Shown here piece by piece: positions 3,690 to 25,711 of a stretch of 64,000 bases of DNA; the first letter of the stretch is position 1, and every line of letters starts with the position of its first letter. The stretch lies in the sequence record NC_054908.1; one strand, written 5' to 3'. The position numbers and the translations under genes were made by a program. The DNA comes from Escherichia phage vB_EcoM_DalCa. The notes beneath the pieces are model-generated. The model saw nothing but the letters and a program-made list of their open reading frames with translations. It did no database searches and was not told the DNA's origin.

Positions 3690-3968
3690 TCAAAATGTAA
3701 TTTCTAACCAATCACCATCACGCTGATCACTATTGACTTTAAAGCTGAATCCTTCTTTTCTCAGCCAATCACCAATTTCTTCAGTAATCAATTTATCACG
3801 AGCAATACAATAATAACTAAAATGTGTTTTACCTTGTTCAGCTGCTTTATTAGCAAGTTCCGAAAAATCTTTAATAAAACATTCTAGTTTAAACTGTTTA
3901 CTTTTAAGTGCTTTTTCTCGCAATTGATTAGCAAAAGATTCATTTTCATAAAGATCATACTGTTCCAT
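3690..3968 (-). CDS. hypothetical protein (T4 24.2 position)
   Basis: 92-aa ORF, translationally coupled to flanking ORFs. Confidence 0.7.
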   Translation of the reverse strand: MEQYDLYENESFANQLREKALKSKQFKLECFIKDFSELANKAAEQGKTHFSYYCIARDKLITEEIGDWLRKEGFSFKVNSDQRDGDWLEITF

Positions 3969-4170
3969 TTTTCACCTTTTTATTGATATGTCTTTTTCTA
4001 TAGACGACTTTTTCTCGAGTTTCAAATTTATTCTTAGCAGTCATAGCTCGAGCCCATAATACAGCCACTTCTTTTGCCTGTAAGTTTAATTCACGAGCAA
4101 TTTCAATGAATGACTTTCCAGACTCATGAAGCGTAAACACCACAACCTCAGTTCTCATAATTAATCTCAT
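3955..4170 (-). CDS. small hypothetical protein with helix-turn-helix-like segment (T4 24.3 position)
   Basis: 71-aa ORF; segment GKSFIEIARELNLQAKEV resembles an HTH. Confidence 0.6.
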   Translation of the reverse strand: MRLIMRTEVVVFTLHESGKSFIEIARELNLQAKEVAVLWARAMTAKNKFETREKVVYRKRHINKKVKNGTV

Positions 4171-4259
4171 GTTATCGAGTTGGTGCCATTATATACATCA
4201 TTTTCTGATTGTGTTTTGCGTGCTTTCAAAATGAAGAAAGGGGCCGAAGCCCCTTATGA

Positions 4260-5675
4260 TTATGGATAGGTATAGATGATACCAGTTTCTAAAGCAGTTT
4301 TATGAATGATGTATCCATTACGCGATTCTTGGACATCAACTTCTGGATAGTCTTTAATCATCTTCTGAAGAGTGTAACGATGCAGGTAGTATTTACTATC
4401 TGGGTCGTCAGTTTTCCAATCTTTACCTTCTTCGGTCATTTTTTGGATTTCATCCATAACCCACCAACCGCACCAGATATAAGCTGAAGTACGATGTGGA
4501 AGAGGATGAACATAAGGTAGTTCACCTTCTGGTTCAATTGGAGTCCGTTCAGCAATAACAACTTCAGCTGTTGAACTAATTGTCTTTGAAGTGTAATTAT
4601 CTTTAGTTAATACTGCTTCAACTTTAATTGTATGAGTACCCGCTGAGGAGGTATCAATACTATAAGTATTAGTAGAATTACTTTCTGCTACGTTGTCTTT
4701 CTTCCAAGAGTACACAATATTAGTATCACCAGGAGCACCAGTAACAGATGCTGTTAAAGTTGCAGTTCCACCAACAGTAGTATTAACTGATGGCGGAGAT
4801 AAAGAAATGGTGGCACTATTAAATGTCGCATTATTAGTTACTACTGTTGCTTCTGCTGAAATTTCTTTTGTAACATAATTTGTTGCAGAAACAGATGCGG
4901 TGCATTTAAGAGTTTTACTTCCGACTTCGGTCGGAGTGAATTTATACGTAGCAGAAGTTGCATCCGGAATATTACTGTCATCCATTGACCATTGGAATGT
5001 TATAGTAGCACCTGAAGGTGCACTAGAGACATTTGCAGTTAAAGTAATAGGAACACCAAAGACTGTAGTCGGAGACTCGGGTGTAATTTTTAGCGTCGAA
5101 GAATTAGCCTTTTTATTTACAGTCAAAGAAACCGCTGATGATTCTACTGTTTTATCAACGTAATCAGTTGCAGTCACTGTGACAGAGCAAGTTATAGACT
5201 TAGTTCCTTCAGTTGTTGGTGTATATTCAAAGGTTGATTGCTTTTGACCGTCAACATCGACCCCGTCAACTTTCCATGTATAATCAATAGCAGCACCAAT
5301 AGGTTGATTGCTTACATTAGCAGTGAATGTTGTTGCTGTTCCAATTTCTACTGCCGCAGGAGAAGCCGGAGTAACAGTGATAGTGGAATTATTTTCTTTC
5401 TTATTAACAGTGATAGTTGTTGATGCTTCAGCTATTTCCGGATCTCCTGCGGAAAGTGTATTAGTTGCAACCACTTTAATTTTTTTTGTTCCTGCTGGAG
5501 AAGCAAGAGTATAATCCATTGTAGCAGCCGTAGAGCCCTGTGTTATATCATCTACAGTCCAGACGTATGTAATAGTACCGTCTGGGGTTTCACCTGCAGG
5601 TGTAGCAGTGAATGTTTGTGAACCTCCAATAACCCCTGTAGGAGTTAGAGGAGATAACGTGACAGTGAATGCCAT
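4260..5675 (-). CDS. hoc: Hoc, highly immunogenic outer capsid protein, with four tandem Ig-like repeats plus conserved C-terminal capsid-binding domain
   Basis: 471-aa ORF; four ~90-aa Thr/Ser-rich repeats; C-terminal ~90 aa (PEGELPYVHPLPHR...IIYTYP) recognised as Hoc capsid-binding domain. Confidence 0.9.
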   Translation of the reverse strand: MAFTVTLSPLTPTGVIGGSQTFTATPAGETPDGTITYVWTVDDITQGSTAATMDYTLASPAGTKKIKVVATNTLSAGDPEIAEASTTITVNKKENNSTITVTPASPAAVEIGTATTFTANVSNQPIGAAIDYTWKVDGVDVDGQKQSTFEYTPTTEGTKSITCSVTVTATDYVDKTVESSAVSLTVNKKANSSTLKITPESPTTVFGVPITLTANVSSAPSGATITFQWSMDDSNIPDATSATYKFTPTEVGSKTLKCTASVSATNYVTKEISAEATVVTNNATFNSATISLSPPSVNTTVGGTATLTASVTGAPGDTNIVYSWKKDNVAESNSTNTYSIDTSSAGTHTIKVEAVLTKDNYTSKTISSTAEVVIAERTPIEPEGELPYVHPLPHRTSAYIWCGWWVMDEIQKMTEEGKDWKTDDPDSKYYLHRYTLQKMIKDYPEVDVQESRNGYIIHKTALETGIIYTYP

Positions 5676-16799: not shown

Positions 16800-16850
16800 A
16801 GACTACTATAACACAACATGATGGACTTGTAAACTACATTTTGAACTTTT
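16800..16850 (-). promoter_or_regulatory. T4 early-type promoter (GTTTACA -35, 17-bp spacer, TATAGT -10) upstream of 16483..16773
   Basis: minus-strand GTTTACAAGTCCATCATGTTGTGTTATAGT; the -35 overlaps the stop codon of the upstream alt paralog. Confidence 0.6.
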
Positions 16851-18891
16851 TAGACATTCCGTTAATGTTAACCAAAGAAGCTAAGATTTGAGAAACTTCA
16901 TTTTCCTCTTCTTTTGATTCTTCTACAAGGAATTGATTAAATCCAGCCATTGGACGAACTTCACCAGTTTCCATTAGATGGTCTCCATCATATACTGATT
17001 CTTCTAATTGTTCAGAAGGAGGAACGATTGTACCTTCGATTAGATACTTGTTATAAGCAGTTTCTTTCATAAAGTACGTACTTACTTTATTAATCTTCAG
17101 TAAAATTCCACGTGGTAGAATAACTTCAGCTTCTGATGGAAATCCTGATAAATGACCCGGAACGATAACTTTGATTCGCTCAGCTCCTTTAATTACCATA
17201 CCCACGCTAGTTTCAGCATCTTCATTAGCATATGTAGAATGACTACCCATATGCATCAAATCTTCTGCATCAACAGAACCTTCTCCTTCGCCAGAAAATA
17301 CTGCACCGGAATCATCTAGAGCCATATAGTTTTTACCATGCTCACCGAAGATATTTGGTTTAAGTGATGTCGATACGAAGTTCTTGAAATAGAACATTTT
17401 ATTTTCAATATTGTGACGCAAAGTTTTAAAGGTAACTTCTTGTCCACGGTAAAGTGTAGTTCCTGGAGGAAGAACTGAACCTTTAGCGAATGCAGAATCC
17501 AGCGTCTCAATATGTTTAATAGCTCGTTCCATATATTCTTCACGGGTAGAATCTGGTTTACCCAAAAGGAACGAGTTCATTTCAACATATGAATCTGCAC
17601 AATAATCTTCAATTACGTCAGATTCAGCCTGAGTTAATCCTTTTGGAGTTACTTCAGTACTTGCATATTCATATGCCTGAGCGGCAGATTCATTAATCAA
17701 TTTATAAATGCCATTCATGACAAATTGAATAATAGCTGTCTTTTCATCTGGCGTAGCTTTAGAACCTTTAACTAAATCATTGACAATTTTCTTAATAACA
17801 TCAAAACTATTAGAAATATTAATATCAGCAAGATCGCTTAAAATTTTATCAGTTTTATAATCAAAGAATTCTTTATTCTTTAAATATTCTTGAGAACCTT
17901 GATATGTTATATCGCTCTGCAGCTTGATAGATGGATCGCGTAAACGTGCATGGGCCAATGCAATATGATTTCGGAAGTTTTCTAGTTCATAATCGTTAGA
18001 TTTAAAACGAGAAGCACTTCTCATACCACCGATAGCTCCTTTGCTAAAGTTTGAACCAATCTGAATAACGCCAGAGTTCATCGGACCTTCTGCTTTATAT
18101 ACCGGAACTTTAGATTCAAACTCTTGATATTTCTTGGCAGCAAAGCTATCACCCTGAAGTGAAGCATCAACAGTAGAATATTGAGCTTGTGCTGCTAATC
18201 GACGACTTATTTTAGTTTTCTGAATAACAGCTTGGTCCGTGCGCTTATCATTTTCTAAAGCAATAGAAGCAGCAACAGCGACAGCTTTAGGAACAGCATT
18301 TCCTGTTTTAACGTCTACATAAACATCACCGACCTTTGATTCAACTTTTGTGAATAACTCAGTTGAAATAGGAGGTACACCTGGAATGTCTTCTAAATTG
18401 GCATTTTTACGGTAAACCATAATATATGCATATTTCTTATCATAGTCCCAGATTTCCTTTAAAAGAACATATCGACCTGCTCCTTTAGTACGTACTAAAC
18501 GGTCAGCAATAACTTGCATTTGACGAGCTGCGCCATTTGTTTTACTTTTTAGTACGCGGAATAGGCATGCGTCGATTTTATACTGTTTCATTGTTTGAAG
18601 AGCAGTATCAAAAACGGCATTAATGACACCAATTGGATTTCCACCCAAGTTTCTAAGTTTAACCAGTGATAGTTTCTCATTAACACCTATCATTACGATA
18701 TGCATCATTTTATCGCCTGGCTTAACGTTTTTATTCGTATCACCACCAGAGGTGTATGTACAAAATCTAAATCCAGGAAGCACGCTTTCTTCGCCGGCTT
18801 GAATAGCAAAAATTTGTGGTATTTTATGCTTAGGATTTAAGTTAACAACCGGCGCCGAAGCGCCGTCAAATAATTCTGTAATAAGTTCCAT
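16834..18891 (-). CDS. Alt-like ADP-ribosyltransferase paralog (second, divergent full-length copy)
   Basis: 685-aa ORF; N-terminus MELITELFD and first ~230 aa similar to Alt; C-terminal region keeps TLYRG, FVSTSL and EAEVILPRG motifs. Confidence 0.85.
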   Translation of the reverse strand: MELITELFDGASAPVVNLNPKHKIPQIFAIQAGEESVLPGFRFCTYTSGGDTNKNVKPGDKMMHIVMIGVNEKLSLVKLRNLGGNPIGVINAVFDTALQTMKQYKIDACLFRVLKSKTNGAARQMQVIADRLVRTKGAGRYVLLKEIWDYDKKYAYIMVYRKNANLEDIPGVPPISTELFTKVESKVGDVYVDVKTGNAVPKAVAVAASIALENDKRTDQAVIQKTKISRRLAAQAQYSTVDASLQGDSFAAKKYQEFESKVPVYKAEGPMNSGVIQIGSNFSKGAIGGMRSASRFKSNDYELENFRNHIALAHARLRDPSIKLQSDITYQGSQEYLKNKEFFDYKTDKILSDLADINISNSFDVIKKIVNDLVKGSKATPDEKTAIIQFVMNGIYKLINESAAQAYEYASTEVTPKGLTQAESDVIEDYCADSYVEMNSFLLGKPDSTREEYMERAIKHIETLDSAFAKGSVLPPGTTLYRGQEVTFKTLRHNIENKMFYFKNFVSTSLKPNIFGEHGKNYMALDDSGAVFSGEGEGSVDAEDLMHMGSHSTYANEDAETSVGMVIKGAERIKVIVPGHLSGFPSEAEVILPRGILLKINKVSTYFMKETAYNKYLIEGTIVPPSEQLEESVYDGDHLMETGEVRPMAGFNQFLVEESKEEENEVSQILASLVNINGMSKKFKM

Positions 18892-18894
18892 GAT

Positions 18895-20949
18895 TTATCC
18901 TTGAACGAACTTGTAAGGCATGTTTGCAATATCTATACAAGACGCAATAATTCCAAGAGATGATTCTACTTTCTGTTTAACATTTGATGAAACAAATGAT
19001 GCAAAGTCAACTCTGTCTTCTACTTCAATATCACCTGTCATTGCAACCAATTCACCAGTTTCCATTAAATGGTCTCCGTCATAGATTACCGATTCGGTGA
19101 GCTCTTCCGTGGTCATAACTTCAGCTTGAATAAGCTTGTTGTTAGTTTTAACTGTTCCATCATTGTAAGATGCATCAGTTATTTTATTAACTTTGACCAT
19201 TAATCCACGTGGCAAAATAACTTCCATTTCATTTGAAGGCGCTAAACTTCCACCGGGTAAAACAACATTGACTTTATCAGCCCCAGTAATAACCCATCCA
19301 ATTCCGACTAAATTATCGCTAGAATTAACAAGCCCTTCATCATTTTTATCGATAGAAATGTTTAGACGCTTTTCATCTGGTAAAACACCAACAGCTGAAT
19401 CAGTCATCCAAGTACCAAAAATGTTTGGATATAATGATGTTGATACAAAATTTCTAAAATAAAAAACTCGATTTTTTACCAATGCTTCATATATTGAAGG
19501 TAACATTCGCTGTGAACGATATAAAGTAATACCTTTTGGCAATCGATCACCATTTTTAAAGGCTGAATCTAAATTATCAATAGCTTTTTCTATGTCAGAT
19601 GCTGTCAAAATACTTGTACGCTCATCTGGATTATATAATCCCAAAAGAGCATTATTTATGTCTACATATCCTGAACCTACGTATTCACGAATTCCGCGTT
19701 TTTGTGCTGGTGTGTATTTAGATGAATCTTTATTTTCGACTATAGGATGTAATGACCATCCAGCTGTAAGAGCATATCCACGTAATTCTCTTCGAATAAT
19801 CTTTGTTTTTATTGCATTCCAAGAATTTTGTACTAACTCATTTGCAGCATCTTGGTTTAAATGCGAATGTTTGTTAATATTTCTTTCAAACCAAGCACCT
19901 TTATATTTTTCTAAAGTATCATCGACGATAGAAGCAATAGTTTCTAAAGTTTTTATTGAAGTAATAGATTCTTTTCGTAATTTTTCTAAAGCTTTATTTT
20001 TTATTTCTGCATTAATAATGGATTCTTTATCTTCAGGAATTATAGAAGCTTCTCTGAATGCCATCCCAGCTGTAACACTGCTAAGAGCATTCTCTAGTGC
20101 AAATCCTGAAGTAGAAATTACCGTTAATTCATTAGAATCAGAAATTAAAGGCGCGTCCGCTGGTTTATTTAATTCTGCCGCTGAAGCCTCAAATTTTTGA
20201 AACATCGGTGTTTCAAATCTAGAAGATTCCAATGACTGACTTTGTGCAATTGCTCTACGGGAAATTTTAACTTTAACGATTACAGCTTGGTCAGAACGTT
20301 TATCATTTTCTTGTGCAATAGATGCTGCAATTGCCTCATTTTTGGTTACTTGAGCTCCGGTATCTTTATTGATATAAACATCACCGACCTTCGATTCAAC
20401 TTTAGTAAAGAGCTCGGTACTAATTTCCGGAACTCCTGGAATGTCTTCTAGTGATACATTTTTGCGATGTATAAGAATATATGCATACTTTTTATCATAA
20501 TCCCAGAGTTCCTTAAGAAGGACGTATCTGCCACCTGAACGACTACGGATAAGTCTATCAGCAATAACTTGAATTTGTCGAGCTTGACCAGCGGTTTTAG
20601 ACTTAAGAATACGAAGCATACAAGCATCAATTTTATACTGACGCATTGTTTGCATTGCAACAGTAAAAACTGAATTGATATAATTAATTGGGCTTGGACC
20701 AAGACCTTTTAATTTAGCAATTGAACCTTTAGCAGTTAATGTAAAAGGAACAATATGCATCATTTTATCGCCCATTTTTAAATCGCGATTAGTATCACCT
20801 CCAGATGTATAGGTACATAAACGAAAGCCTGGTTGTTCAATTGCATCATCAACATGAACTGAAAAAATTTGCGGTATTTTCTTCTTTGGATTTAAGTTTG
20901 TAATCGGAAGAGTAGTATCTTCGTCAAATAATTCTGTAATAAGTTCCAT
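18895..20949 (-). CDS. alt: Alt, ADP-ribosyltransferase packaged in the virion
   Basis: 684 aa from the second Met; recognised as T4 Alt along its length; motifs TLYRS, FVSTSL, EMEVILPRG. Confidence 0.92.
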   Translation of the reverse strand: MELITELFDEDTTLPITNLNPKKKIPQIFSVHVDDAIEQPGFRLCTYTSGGDTNRDLKMGDKMMHIVPFTLTAKGSIAKLKGLGPSPINYINSVFTVAMQTMRQYKIDACMLRILKSKTAGQARQIQVIADRLIRSRSGGRYVLLKELWDYDKKYAYILIHRKNVSLEDIPGVPEISTELFTKVESKVGDVYINKDTGAQVTKNEAIAASIAQENDKRSDQAVIVKVKISRRAIAQSQSLESSRFETPMFQKFEASAAELNKPADAPLISDSNELTVISTSGFALENALSSVTAGMAFREASIIPEDKESIINAEIKNKALEKLRKESITSIKTLETIASIVDDTLEKYKGAWFERNINKHSHLNQDAANELVQNSWNAIKTKIIRRELRGYALTAGWSLHPIVENKDSSKYTPAQKRGIREYVGSGYVDINNALLGLYNPDERTSILTASDIEKAIDNLDSAFKNGDRLPKGITLYRSQRMLPSIYEALVKNRVFYFRNFVSTSLYPNIFGTWMTDSAVGVLPDEKRLNISIDKNDEGLVNSSDNLVGIGWVITGADKVNVVLPGGSLAPSNEMEVILPRGLMVKVNKITDASYNDGTVKTNNKLIQAEVMTTEELTESVIYDGDHLMETGELVAMTGDIEVEDRVDFASFVSSNVKQKVESSLGIIASCIDIANMPYKFVQG

Positions 20950-21001
20950 CATAGCCTCTCTAGTGTTTATTCTATTTATAAAATTAAAGGCCCGAAGGCC
21001 T

Positions 21002-21190
21002 TTAGTAATCTAGTGGTAAGAGAGTACGATATATTTCAAACTTTGGTCCTTTTTCATAGGCATCAAATGTTTCTGTAAATTTATTATAAGCGTATGCATC
21101 TACAAATTCGAGAATGACTTGTGATACAGAAGTAGAAACATCTCCACCTTCTTTTTGAGCAATGACAATTGTTTCTAAGTAAGCTTTCAT
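21002..21190 (-). CDS. small hypothetical protein (alt.1 position)
   Basis: 62-aa ORF between ligase and alt, stop/start coupled to gene 30. Confidence 0.65.
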   Translation of the reverse strand: MKAYLETIVIAQKEGGDVSTSVSQVILEFVDAYAYNKFTETFDAYEKGPKFEIYRTLLPLDY

Positions 21191-22650: not shown

Positions 22651-22916
22651 TGTTCATCCTTTAGAGTTTGGTTTACAGCTCTATTATAAATCAATTCATC
22701 ATTAAGCTCAGTCAAAGACCTGTGGTACGTGGTTCTAACTTTATTTCCTTGCATCCAGTGCTTGACGTAAATGAAACCTTGCTCTACACATTTTTTAAAA
22801 ATTCGTTCGTCTTTTTGAGCTCGGAATTCTGGATTGCATCTAAAAAATTGATTTACGTGACCGTAATCACGTGTAGTATTACCTTCATTTTCATAAATAG
22901 TGTGAACAACAAACAT
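22647..22916 (-). CDS. hypothetical protein (30.1 position)
   Basis: 89-aa ORF, overlapping stop/start with flanking genes. Confidence 0.7.
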   Translation of the reverse strand: MFVVHTIYENEGNTTRDYGHVNQFFRCNPEFRAQKDERIFKKCVEQGFIYVKHWMQGNKVRTTYHRSLTELNDELIYNRAVNQTLKDEQ

Positions 22917-23770
22917 TAGAATGCTCCTTGGAAAATATTATCACCACTACCACTAGTAAGTCTATTAAAATACCCTGCGTCGCCAGGCTTAATATAACTC
23001 CACGTATGGAATGGATGCATCTGATGTGAGTGTGTATAATATGGATGATATGGATTATAAGGATTAAATCCAGGAGTTCTCCAAGTAGTGTTCCAACGAA
23101 AAGAATCGTTTTTAATCATCTTCTCAATTACATCTTTTATAACTTTTTCACTATCAAAACTTTCTTTATTTTCCTTCGATGGAAAAAGCTTATTCTCTAC
23201 ATCATTCCATGTATAAACTCGCTGTGCAGTTTTTGGAATACTGTCACGTTCCCCTCGAGCCATCCAATAAACAGGAACATTTAATATTTCACTCGCGTGA
23301 TCGCAGTGGTGAGCGAGATCGTCAATATAACAAATTACGTTATATTTTTCTTTTGCCTTTTTGAACAACTCTTCTTTTGAAGAATCATGACCACACATCA
23401 GTACTTCTGAGAAGGCACCAGGAAAAAGAGCATTCAAATTAAATTGACGATTCAGCAGAGCGTCAATAGAATCACCCAATGCTGTAACAGCTACAAAATT
23501 ATAATCTTCTTTTAATTTGTTAATTACACACAGAGCATCTTTATATGGAGACAAGTAACGAATAAAATCTGAACGATTGTATTTTTCAATTAGCTTGACG
23601 CCAAGTTCTTCGTCACAATTAAAGAGTTTACCTGGAGAAATAAATTTCTCATCCTGGATCATTTTTAAAATATGTTCTAACGGAAGATTATATTTCTGAG
23701 CAAAATAAGGAAGACCTGATTGCCAGCTTAAACATACTCCATCAATATCAGTTAAAATAGTAGGCTTCAT
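22916..23770 (-). CDS. 30.2: HAD-superfamily phosphatase-like protein (30.2 position) with His/Tyr/Pro-rich C-terminal tail
   Basis: N-terminal ILTDIDGV matches HAD motif I (DxDG); later CYIDD resembles motif III. Confidence 0.7.
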   Translation of the reverse strand: MKPTILTDIDGVCLSWQSGLPYFAQKYNLPLEHILKMIQDEKFISPGKLFNCDEELGVKLIEKYNRSDFIRYLSPYKDALCVINKLKEDYNFVAVTALGDSIDALLNRQFNLNALFPGAFSEVLMCGHDSSKEELFKKAKEKYNVICYIDDLAHHCDHASEILNVPVYWMARGERDSIPKTAQRVYTWNDVENKLFPSKENKESFDSEKVIKDVIEKMIKNDSFRWNTTWRTPGFNPYNPYHPYYTHSHQMHPFHTWSYIKPGDAGYFNRLTSGSGDNIFQGAF

Positions 23771-24231
23771 AGAGAGTCTCTTAATAGGTTTAACACATCA
23801 ATAAATTCAGCTTCGGTTAGTATTGTATCATCTTTTGTTAGACCACTAGCCATGCTGTGCTTCAAAACTTTTCCTTTCGAGGCTTGTAATGCATCACGGA
23901 AGCCCTTGTTTTGGATCACTGCTTCAAAATATGCATTTGTGTATAATTCTTTCCACGCCGGGGAGTATCTTGAAAATGGAACTCCAAGCCAGAAGAGGGT
24001 CCCACGGTCCTGAGCTCTAGCATAAGACCTTCCAGCTTGTTGAGCGGCAAGCCCGGATAACCCAAATATACGACGTTGTTGTTCAACGTTTTTTACCTTG
24101 CATCCTTGGAGGAATCCTTCAAGACCTCCAAATTGAATACCATCCATAACGAAAGGCCATTGGGCGAAATTGCTTAATGCACATGATGGCCATCTAAAAT
24201 TGCTTCTTATCTCTAGCTCAGACATTTTCAA
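23767..24231 (-). CDS. 30.3: YbiA/NADAR (DUF1768)-like protein (30.3 position)
   Basis: segment LSNFAQWPFVMDGIQF resembles the FSNFAAWP..VDG core recalled from E. coli YbiA. Confidence 0.6.
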   Translation of the reverse strand: MKMSELEIRSNFRWPSCALSNFAQWPFVMDGIQFGGLEGFLQGCKVKNVEQQRRIFGLSGLAAQQAGRSYARAQDRGTLFWLGVPFSRYSPAWKELYTNAYFEAVIQNKGFRDALQASKGKVLKHSMASGLTKDDTILTEAEFIDVLNLLRDSL

Positions 24232-24424
24232 TACTTATAATTTCAACATCAGCCCAATGACCATAGCAAGGAAGACGAAATTCAACTGGCCAGTTAGGGT
24301 CCTTTTCTAATATAATAGACTTAACTTGTGGTTCTTCATGTTCATCGGTATACGGACCTTTATACGTTACTTTATATGTGACCTTAATGTACTGAATTCC
24401 AAAAATCTTATTAATTATATTCAT
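24218..24424 (-). CDS. hypothetical protein
   Basis: 68-aa ORF in a translationally coupled accessory block. Confidence 0.55.
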   Translation of the reverse strand: MNIINKIFGIQYIKVTYKVTYKGPYTDEHEEPQVKSIILEKDPNWPVEFRLPCYGHWADVEIISIENV

Positions 24425-25378: not shown

Positions 25379-25711
25379 TTATTTTACTAATTTCCAATGC
25401 TTCATGTCAAGTTTGCCAACTTTTTTCATCTTCTCAATTAAGCGTTCGGCACGCTGGCGAGCTGTAACATAATACCATTCACCCAATTCATTTTGTTCAA
25501 TTTTTCCAACGATTACTGTATTCAATTCATAAATCCAACCAGTAAAGAAATTATGAACTTGAATTGTAAAGGTGAAATCTGTTCCCATACCTTCTGTTGT
25601 TTCTACTTCAACAATATCACCTTCAACTGCCATTAAGAACCACATAGTTTCATCATATTTACCATTGAAGCATTTAGTTTTAACTGCAGCGTTCAGATTA
25701 ATCGTTTTCAT
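25379..25711 (-). CDS. hypothetical protein
   Basis: 110-aa ORF preceded by an early-type promoter at about 25735..25775. Confidence 0.6.
   Translation of the reverse strand: MKTINLNAAVKTKCFNGKYDETMWFLMAVEGDIVEVETTEGMGTDFTFTIQVHNFFTGWIYELNTVIVGKIEQNELGEWYYVTARQRAERLIEKMKKVGKLDMKHWKLVK

Follow-up and report, generated by a model that had tools for sequence, protein, structure and literature searches.

Gene 30.3 of Escherichia phage vB_EcoM_DalCa is most probably adfN and is predicted to encode a NADAR-core protein that reverses DarT1 ADP-ribosylation of phage DNA

Gene 30.3 corresponds to adfN of phage T4

The DNA analysed here is a window of 64,000 nucleotides from Escherichia phage vB_EcoM_DalCa (NC_054908.1; positions are counted from the first letter of the window). 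On its minus strand it carries gene 30.3, the product of which is 99% identical to gp30.3 of phage T4. The open reading frame (ORF) is most probably adfN, and its 152-residue NADAR-core protein would reverse DarT1 guanine ADP-ribosylation of phage DNA, a reading to which we assign a probability of about 0.93. The function itself is already known. A bioinformatic study of 2012 (de Souza and Aravind, cited by both PMC11543638 and PMC11125620) predicted gp30.3 to be a NADAR protein, the biochemistry was described in 2024 and the biology in 2025, when T4 gp30.3 received the name AdfN, for anti-DarT factor NADAR (Johannesman et al., Nat Commun 2025, PMC11825919).

The genetic evidence comes from T4 and its relatives. 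T4 and T2 deleted for adfN form no plaques on DarTG1 hosts, and adfN(T4) expressed ectopically restores the growth of RB69 on DarTG1 (PMC11825919); the gene is both necessary and sufficient for T-even phages to evade DarTG1. With recombinant RB69 chimeras, the determinant by which T2 and T4 resist DarTG1 was mapped to the 3' part of 30.3, and C-terminal truncation weakens AdfN(T4) (PMC11825919). Transposon insertions in 30.3 drop out of a T4 library solely when DarTG1 is present (log2 fold change -7.25, adjusted p = 0), and insertions in 30.2, 30.1, alt and 61.2 are not depleted under the same selection (bioRxiv 10.1101/2025.11.20.689424). The biochemical evidence concerns the T4 protein as well. 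Purified AdfN(T4) strips ADP-ribose off DarT1-modified DNA (PMC11825919), and in vitro T4 gp30.3 hydrolyses ADP-ribosylated guanine (G-ADPr) but not ADP-ribosylated thymine (T-ADPr; PMC11125620). Studies of the Ahel and Mikoc groups report cleavage of guanine-ADPr on both DNA and RNA and none of thymine- or cytosine-ADPr (PMC11125620, PMC12945103). A preliminary description of this locus, made from the letters of the DNA, had offered protection from DarT-type toxins as one possible role of the ORF; for a protein 99% identical to the DalCa one, such protection has been shown experimentally (PMC11825919, PMC11125620). Of note, the gp30.3 construct in the Methods of PMC11125620 spans residues 1–208, against the 152 residues encoded by T4 and DalCa, a discrepancy that could be due to tags or to another gene model.

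The minus-strand ORF extends over 23767..24231, has 154 codons when read from a TTG and contains the peptide LSNFAQWPFVMDGIQFGGLEGF. Its true start is most likely not this TTG (24231) but the ATG at 24225, two codons further on, which is the start annotated for the T4 homologue and yields a protein of 152 residues. The coding sequence of adfN/gene 30.3, encoding a core-only NADAR-fold ADP-ribosylglycohydrolase, thus occupies 23767..24225 (minus strand; 152 codons and a stop). A103V and I125M are the sole differences between the T4 and DalCa proteins, and M125 is the consensus residue of the gp30.3 family. At the nucleotide level the two genes differ at 15 positions, 13 of which are synonymous in the 30.3 frame, and this pattern marks 30.3 as a real, selected gene. 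The ORF picked out in the preliminary description is therefore genuine, as is also evident from its full-profile Pfam match (PF08010, E = 4.9e-70) and from 1,509 homolog records.

A 2.4-kb segment around the ORF has matches in 686 phage records, with a top nucleotide identity of 97.7%. Judged by its sequence, the window is T4-like phage DNA, and the ORF is identified as gene 30.3 because the local gene order is that of the T4 record (alt, alt.1, 30 (ligase), 30.1, 30.2, 30.3, 30.4, 30.5). T4 has an additional out-of-frame ORF, 30.3' (window 23862..24089, minus strand), inside 30.3. In DalCa it is broken, its ATG being replaced by ACG (a change that is silent in the 30.3 frame) and an in-frame TGA, which is the A103V change, following codon 57. 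The lost start and the in-frame stop argue that 30.3' is not a conserved gene.

NADAR fold, catalytic residues and C-terminal helix

The 30.3 protein matches PF08010 (Phage_30_3) over profile positions 1–138 of 138 with 234.2 bits against a cut-off of 36 (Pfam hmmscan). In PHROGs, its matches are limited to families of 'unknown function'. The relationship to NADAR proteins emerges from pairwise and profile–profile comparisons. BLASTP aligns the protein with E. coli YbiA at 33% identity over 57 residues (pairwise E = 1e-5), and the alignment covers exactly the motif within LSNFAQWPFVMDGIQFGGLEGF for which a likeness to YbiA had been noted in the preliminary description. The top match of the gp30.3 family profile in the Protein Data Bank (PDB) is likewise YbiA (2b3w), at a non-significant E of 0.056. 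When the gp30.3 family is compared by hhalign with an alignment of the YbiA family, the probability is 95.4%, with E = 2e-8 over residues 17–126. Several YbiA homologs and several gp30.3-family proteins match both PF08010 and PF08719 (NADAR).

An AlphaFold2 model, computed from an alignment of ten family members with the T4 sequence left out, is confident (predicted local distance difference test score, pLDDT, 90.5; predicted template modelling score, pTM, 0.86) and displays an alpha-helical core flanked by two small beta hairpins, the arrangement by which the NADAR fold is defined. Foldseek returns three matches at a probability of 1.00. Membership of the 30.3 protein in the NADAR superfamily is thus supported, and the structure prediction proposed earlier as a check agrees with it.

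Conservation of the catalytic residues had been put forward as a further check, and both the catalytic glutamate and the catalytic lysine are in place. Glu36 (codon GAA, 24118..24120, minus strand; E38 if counted from the TTG) aligns with YbiA E48, and Lys43 (codon AAG, 24097..24099, minus strand), the phosphate-coordinating residue, aligns with YbiA K55; their counterparts are E43/K50 in PnNADAR and E88/K95 in E. coli C7. His123 (codon CAC, 23857..23859, minus strand) belongs to the last beta strand. All three residues are invariant among the 10–11 family members aligned, and H123 is kept in at least 90% of 54 distant family members. A histidine in this place is the mark of the phage NADAR clade, the same place being taken by Glu in YbiA and by Asp in DarG1 (PMC11543638, PMC11125620). 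YbiA Glu125, which is invariant in the YbiA alignment, faces K122/H123 of the 30.3 protein in the hhalign comparison, and the glutamate characteristic of the YbiA family is absent from 30.3. In T4 AdfN, the substitutions E36A and K43A each impair the protein (PMC11825919).

The C-terminal helix (residues 138–151 in the AlphaFold2 model; residues 138–152 are encoded by 23770..23814, minus strand) is intact and identical to that of T4, and the DalCa protein ends ...LLRDSL as the T4 protein does, at its full length of 152 residues. The 30.3 allele of RB69, by comparison, is frameshifted, lacks the last 15 residues and leaves the phage sensitive to DarTG1 (PMC11825919). Since the DalCa allele is full length and its C-terminal helix is identical to that of T4, DalCa adfN is predicted to be functional and the phage to resist DarTG1. 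We infer that the DalCa allele, with its A103V and I125M changes, behaves as that of T4.

Proposed mechanism and points against it

In a host with DarTG1, infection would free DarT1, which would put ADP-ribose on guanine N2 of phage DNA and thereby block replication. AdfN would hold the ADP-ribose moiety with Lys43 at the diphosphate and with Glu36 and His123 at the distal ribose. It would then cleave the N-glycosidic bond between the distal ribose and guanine N2, so that ADP-ribose leaves, the guanine is restored and replication can resume. The parts given to single residues are modelled on the PnNADAR–ADPr crystal structure (PMC11543638) and are putative in AdfN.

A number of observations weigh against this reading. 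In Pfam hmmscan, the 30.3 protein has no match to PF08719 (NADAR) at E <= 1, and beyond PF08010 there is only an insignificant match to DUF724. NCBIfam contains no match for the 30.3 protein (nor for that of the neighbouring gene 30.4), and phmmer searches of PDB sequences with the single protein give chance matches only. The preliminary description had considered the lack of a significant NADAR match in profile searches to be a reason for discarding the assignment. This rule would have misled, because Pfam hmmscan shows PF08010 only; the profile–profile comparison with the YbiA family is significant. At the active site, hhalign sets H123 one residue off the YbiA glutamate, so its register is uncertain by +/-1, and the putative role of H123 as third catalytic residue is taken from structural alignments in the literature.

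On the functional side, AdfN(T4) fails to neutralise DarT1 when E. coli is not infected (PMC11125620, PMC11825919), and T5 and Bas25 are rescued by it only weakly (PMC11825919). Both results argue that a T-even-specific factor or context is needed, and the simple picture of a free-standing antitoxin is incomplete. The bare core of AdfN(T4), devoid of the nucleic-acid-binding extension of DarG1, may lie behind this need for a T-even context. Finally, the function is transferred from the T4 protein, and the activity of the DalCa allele itself is a prediction.

Neighbouring genes

In the order of transcription, 30.3 comes before 30.2, 30.1 and ligase gene 30. The preliminary description placed it three genes downstream of ligase; it is indeed the third gene counted from ligase, on the upstream side in the sense of transcription. 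Directly upstream of 30.3, and overlapping its start, is gene 30.4 (24218..24424, minus strand; 68 residues, phrog_2042; named after the T4 annotation). The stop of 30.4 and the start of 30.3 share the 8 nucleotides ATGTCTGA (24218..24225, minus strand), as read from the sequence and the ORF coordinates and as annotated in T4. With the 30.3 start inside the 30.4 end, this overlap is indicative of translational coupling. In the same manner, the stop codon of 30.3 shares the sequence ATGA with the 30.2 start (23767..23770, minus strand; also from the sequence and the ORF coordinates), and these two genes are probably translationally coupled as well. Insertions of the T4 library in 30.4 are depleted under DarTG1 (log2 fold change -1.79, adjusted p = 0.014; bioRxiv 10.1101/2025.11.20.689424). 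Most simply, this depletion is a polar effect on the overlapping start of 30.3; the alternative is that it reflects a helper role of gp30.4.

The window encodes two Alt-type ADP-ribosyltransferases (ARTs; 18895..20952 and 16834..18891, both minus strand, 685 residues each, PF03496). The two ARTs of the preliminary description are thus real. They are not next to 30.3, as it had them, but about 2.8 kb away, past ligase, alt.1 and a terminator-like hairpin between alt.1 and alt (21004..20985, minus strand). One of these tandem paralogs is 98% identical to T4 Alt, and the other is 41% identical to the first. Where DalCa has a second full-length paralog, T4 retains nothing but the decayed remnants alt.-1 and alt.-2. 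No DarT1 toxin gene was found adjoining 30.3: its neighbours are 30.4 and 30.2, and the nearby ARTs are Alt-type (Pfam, PHROGs).

A near-consensus sigma-70-like site with 11 of 12 matches is found upstream of 30.7 (25410..25381, minus strand; a consensus match only). A consensus promoter scan returns 22 sites against 20.6 expected by chance, and no promoter is claimed. Together, the hairpin and the sigma-70-like site, both consensus matches only, would bracket a transcription unit that runs from 30.7 to alt.1 and includes adfN and ligase.

The gene downstream of adfN, 30.2 (22916..23770, minus strand), encodes a HAD-superfamily protein, in agreement with the HAD-like phosphatase seen in it at the outset. 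All four HAD motifs are intact, residues D8, D10, T96, K132, D150 and D151 being invariant. In profile searches, the best solved relative of gp30.2 is a 5'(3')-deoxyribonucleotidase (E = 0.007), and its model contains a confident HAD domain (residues 1–200) followed by a disordered tail. gp30.2 is, by its sequence, apparently an active HAD phosphatase. It matches no Pfam family, and no paper naming gp30.2 was found in the literature. Its C-terminus, about 85 residues long, is variable, predicted to be disordered and rich in aromatic residues, His and Pro.

Alternative functions

The conservation of the locus was followed across 26 viral loci related to it. All T4-like loci among them retain the block 30.4-30.3-30.2-30.1-ligase-alt, and 30.3 and 30.2 are still adjacent at 45% identity (locus L018). 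Among distant loci, at 34–42% identity, two (L024, 4914..5969, and L025, 3478..4440) have a gp30.3-type NADAR fused to a C-terminal NT5C-type HAD 5'-nucleotidase, although in the L024 fusion Gly replaces the second Asp of HAD motif I. A third (L022) has a gp30.2-family HAD gene (3736..4308) 0.7 kb upstream of its NADAR gene. Coupling through ATGA, the persistent adjacency and the NADAR–NT5C fusions brought gp30.2 under suspicion as a partner of AdfN. As the missing T-even cofactor in DarTG1 escape, it was rejected, since T4 insertions in 30.2 are neutral under DarTG1 (log2 fold change -0.12, adjusted p = 1; bioRxiv 10.1101/2025.11.20.689424).

The same observations would fit a broader proposal, namely that the NADAR protein and gp30.2 form a two-enzyme module which, besides de-ADP-ribosylating DNA, handles nucleotide metabolites that are ribosylated or derive from ADP-ribose; among these might be guanine mononucleotides bearing ADP-ribose, liberated ADP-ribose products and immune signals made from NAD. 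The intact HAD motifs of gp30.2 and its deoxyribonucleotidase relative suit such substrates, as do fusions of other family members to histidine phosphatase, HD, SLOG and Tpt1/KptA domains. Small-molecule substrates have been proposed for phage NADARs (PMC9503650), and guanine mononucleotides are listed among the acceptors of ScARP-type ADP-ribosylation (PMC12945103). Yet the adjacency in T4-like loci could be inherited synteny, to be counted once, and the HAD neighbour is absent in six of the nine distant loci. Between the gp30.2 family and the fused NT5C domain the relationship is weak (hhalign probability 47%, BLASTP not significant). Furthermore, 30.2 is dispensable on E. coli K-12 according to the reference T4 library, its loss is without effect under DarTG1, and no biochemical study of gp30.2 was found in the literature. 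On balance, we regard the module as rather unlikely. Only a little more doubtful is the general proposition that the T4-type NADAR does not act alone, with a gp30.2 module apart from DarTG1 repair and, relatedly, gp30.4 as a T-even-specific helper.

Two further functions can be considered for 30.3. The enzyme might reverse the phage's own ADP-ribosylation, that is, the marks of Alt, ModA or ModB on host proteins or RNA. T4-like NADARs are indeed expressed early together with ARTs (PMC9503650), 30.3 shares its early-gene region with two Alt paralogs, and T4 NADAR acts on guanosine-ADPr in RNA in vitro. The substrates are nevertheless ill-matched: N-glycosidase activity of NADARs is reported for guanine ADPr only (cytosine too in some families), neither T- nor C-ADPr is a substrate of the T4 enzyme, and phosphate-linked ADPr is not cleaved by NADARs. 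Alt ADP-ribosylation falls on arginine, and the T4 record gives the RNA polymerase alpha subunit and other proteins as Alt targets. Moreover, ligase and the terminator-like hairpin stand between the Alt genes and 30.3, and alt insertions have no DarTG1 phenotype, while the phenotype of 30.3 is DarTG1-only. The processing of Alt products, which the preliminary description had suggested, thus finds no support and is very improbable; no report of gp30.3 assayed on arginine-ADPr was found in the literature, which leaves it unsupported rather than disproved.

Least probable of all, to the point of being barely credible, is a role without any part in defence, in which 30.3 would be a YbiA-type metabolite-damage N-glycosidase acting on reactive riboflavin-pathway intermediates. 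Activity of YbiA on riboflavin intermediates is published, and among solved structures the sequence most closely related to 30.3 is that of E. coli YbiA, but the phage clade has another residue in place of the family-defining Glu of YbiA. The substrate of the T4 protein is ADP-ribosylated DNA, its conditional essentiality is confined to DarTG1, and it is not obvious why a phage would need to control riboflavin damage. Reversal of DarT1 guanine ADP-ribosylation is retained as the most probable function of the 30.3 protein.

Distribution and significance

A search with window 23770..24225 finds homologs of 30.3 in 1,509 of 50,697 phage records. The phages bearing them infect Escherichia, Klebsiella, Aeromonas, Acinetobacter and Vibrio, among others, and nearly all of the homolog records listed carry the label 'hypothetical protein'. 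Standard Pfam and NCBIfam scans do not label the protein 'NADAR', so that a characterised anti-defence gene escapes annotation pipelines.

Natural variation of the gene includes truncated or chimeric public alleles (P0007, P0012–P0016, P0022 and L015 4977..5345), with lengths of 86–126 residues among them. One public allele is devoid of residues 1–38 and hence of Glu36, and some public ORFs join PF08010 with PF11097, PF06919 or PF06019. To judge from these alleles, natural T4-like phages appear to lose adfN commonly, RB69 being one example. The intact allele of DalCa bears on the choice of phages against DarTG1-bearing hosts, and the context data on 30.2 and 30.4 slightly narrow the candidates for the T-even-specific requirement of AdfN.

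The wider gp30.3 family comprises 726 representatives at 50% identity. Within it (P0143–P0285), NADAR occurs as tandem repeats (P0143, P0160) or together with Tpt1/KptA, YpsA-SLOG, histidine phosphatase, HD, ASCH, LRR_5, GDSL lipase, LGT or D-Ala-D-Ala ligase domains; the fusions seen among 54 long members include those to histidine phosphatase, HD, SLOG, Tpt1/KptA, ASCH and LRR domains. Some of these repeats and fusions may be gene-calling artefacts.

Comparison with known systems

AdfN(T4) is the nearest known protein. It has the same length as the DalCa protein, the same E36/K43/H123 residues and the same C-terminal helix; its gene neighbours are also the same, as are the overlaps at its start and stop. 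Besides the A103V and I125M changes, DalCa differs from T4 by its broken 30.3' and its extra full-length alt paralog.

DarG1-type NADARs are reported to be the clade nearest to the phage NADARs (PMC11825919). In the DarG1 antitoxins of E. coli C7 and Geobacter/Trichlorobacter lovleyi (PDB 8bat; PMC11543638), the catalytic Glu and Lys are conserved likewise, and the mechanism, hydrolysis of guanine-ADPr, is the same. Unlike 30.3, which is an orphan antitoxin-like gene, DarG1 is paired with a DarT toxin gene. It has an Asp in the last strand where 30.3 has His, and its N-terminal extension, which forms an electropositive nucleic-acid channel, has no equivalent in the 152-residue core encoded by 30.3. 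AdfN(T4) is unable to replace DarG1 in uninfected cells.

E. coli YbiA (2b3w; PF08719, NADAR/DUF1768) shares the SNFAxWP...DG...E.....K motif block with 30.3 and, like T4 gp30.3, hydrolyses G-ADPr in vitro. Its Glu125 is not conserved in 30.3, which is below Pfam detection for PF08719. In contrast to the phage gene, ybiA lies on the chromosome, in an operon under LexA control, and its product has a role as an N-glycosidase of riboflavin intermediates.

Similar to 30.3, AdfN(Bas32) and AdfN(Bas60) of T5-like and Vequintavirinae phages are orphan, guanine-specific NADARs that counter DarTG1 (PMC11825919). They belong to other NADAR clades and were acquired independently; unlike the T4-type protein, which needs a T-even context, they neutralise DarT1 without infection and work across unrelated phages (PMC11825919). 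T4 itself carries a second such factor, AdfM (Tk.4), an orphan antitoxin-like ADP-ribosylglycohydrolase that follows the same strategy as AdfN but has a macrodomain fold, counters DarTG2 (thymine ADP-ribosylation) and is encoded elsewhere in the T4 genome (bioRxiv 10.1101/2025.11.20.689424).

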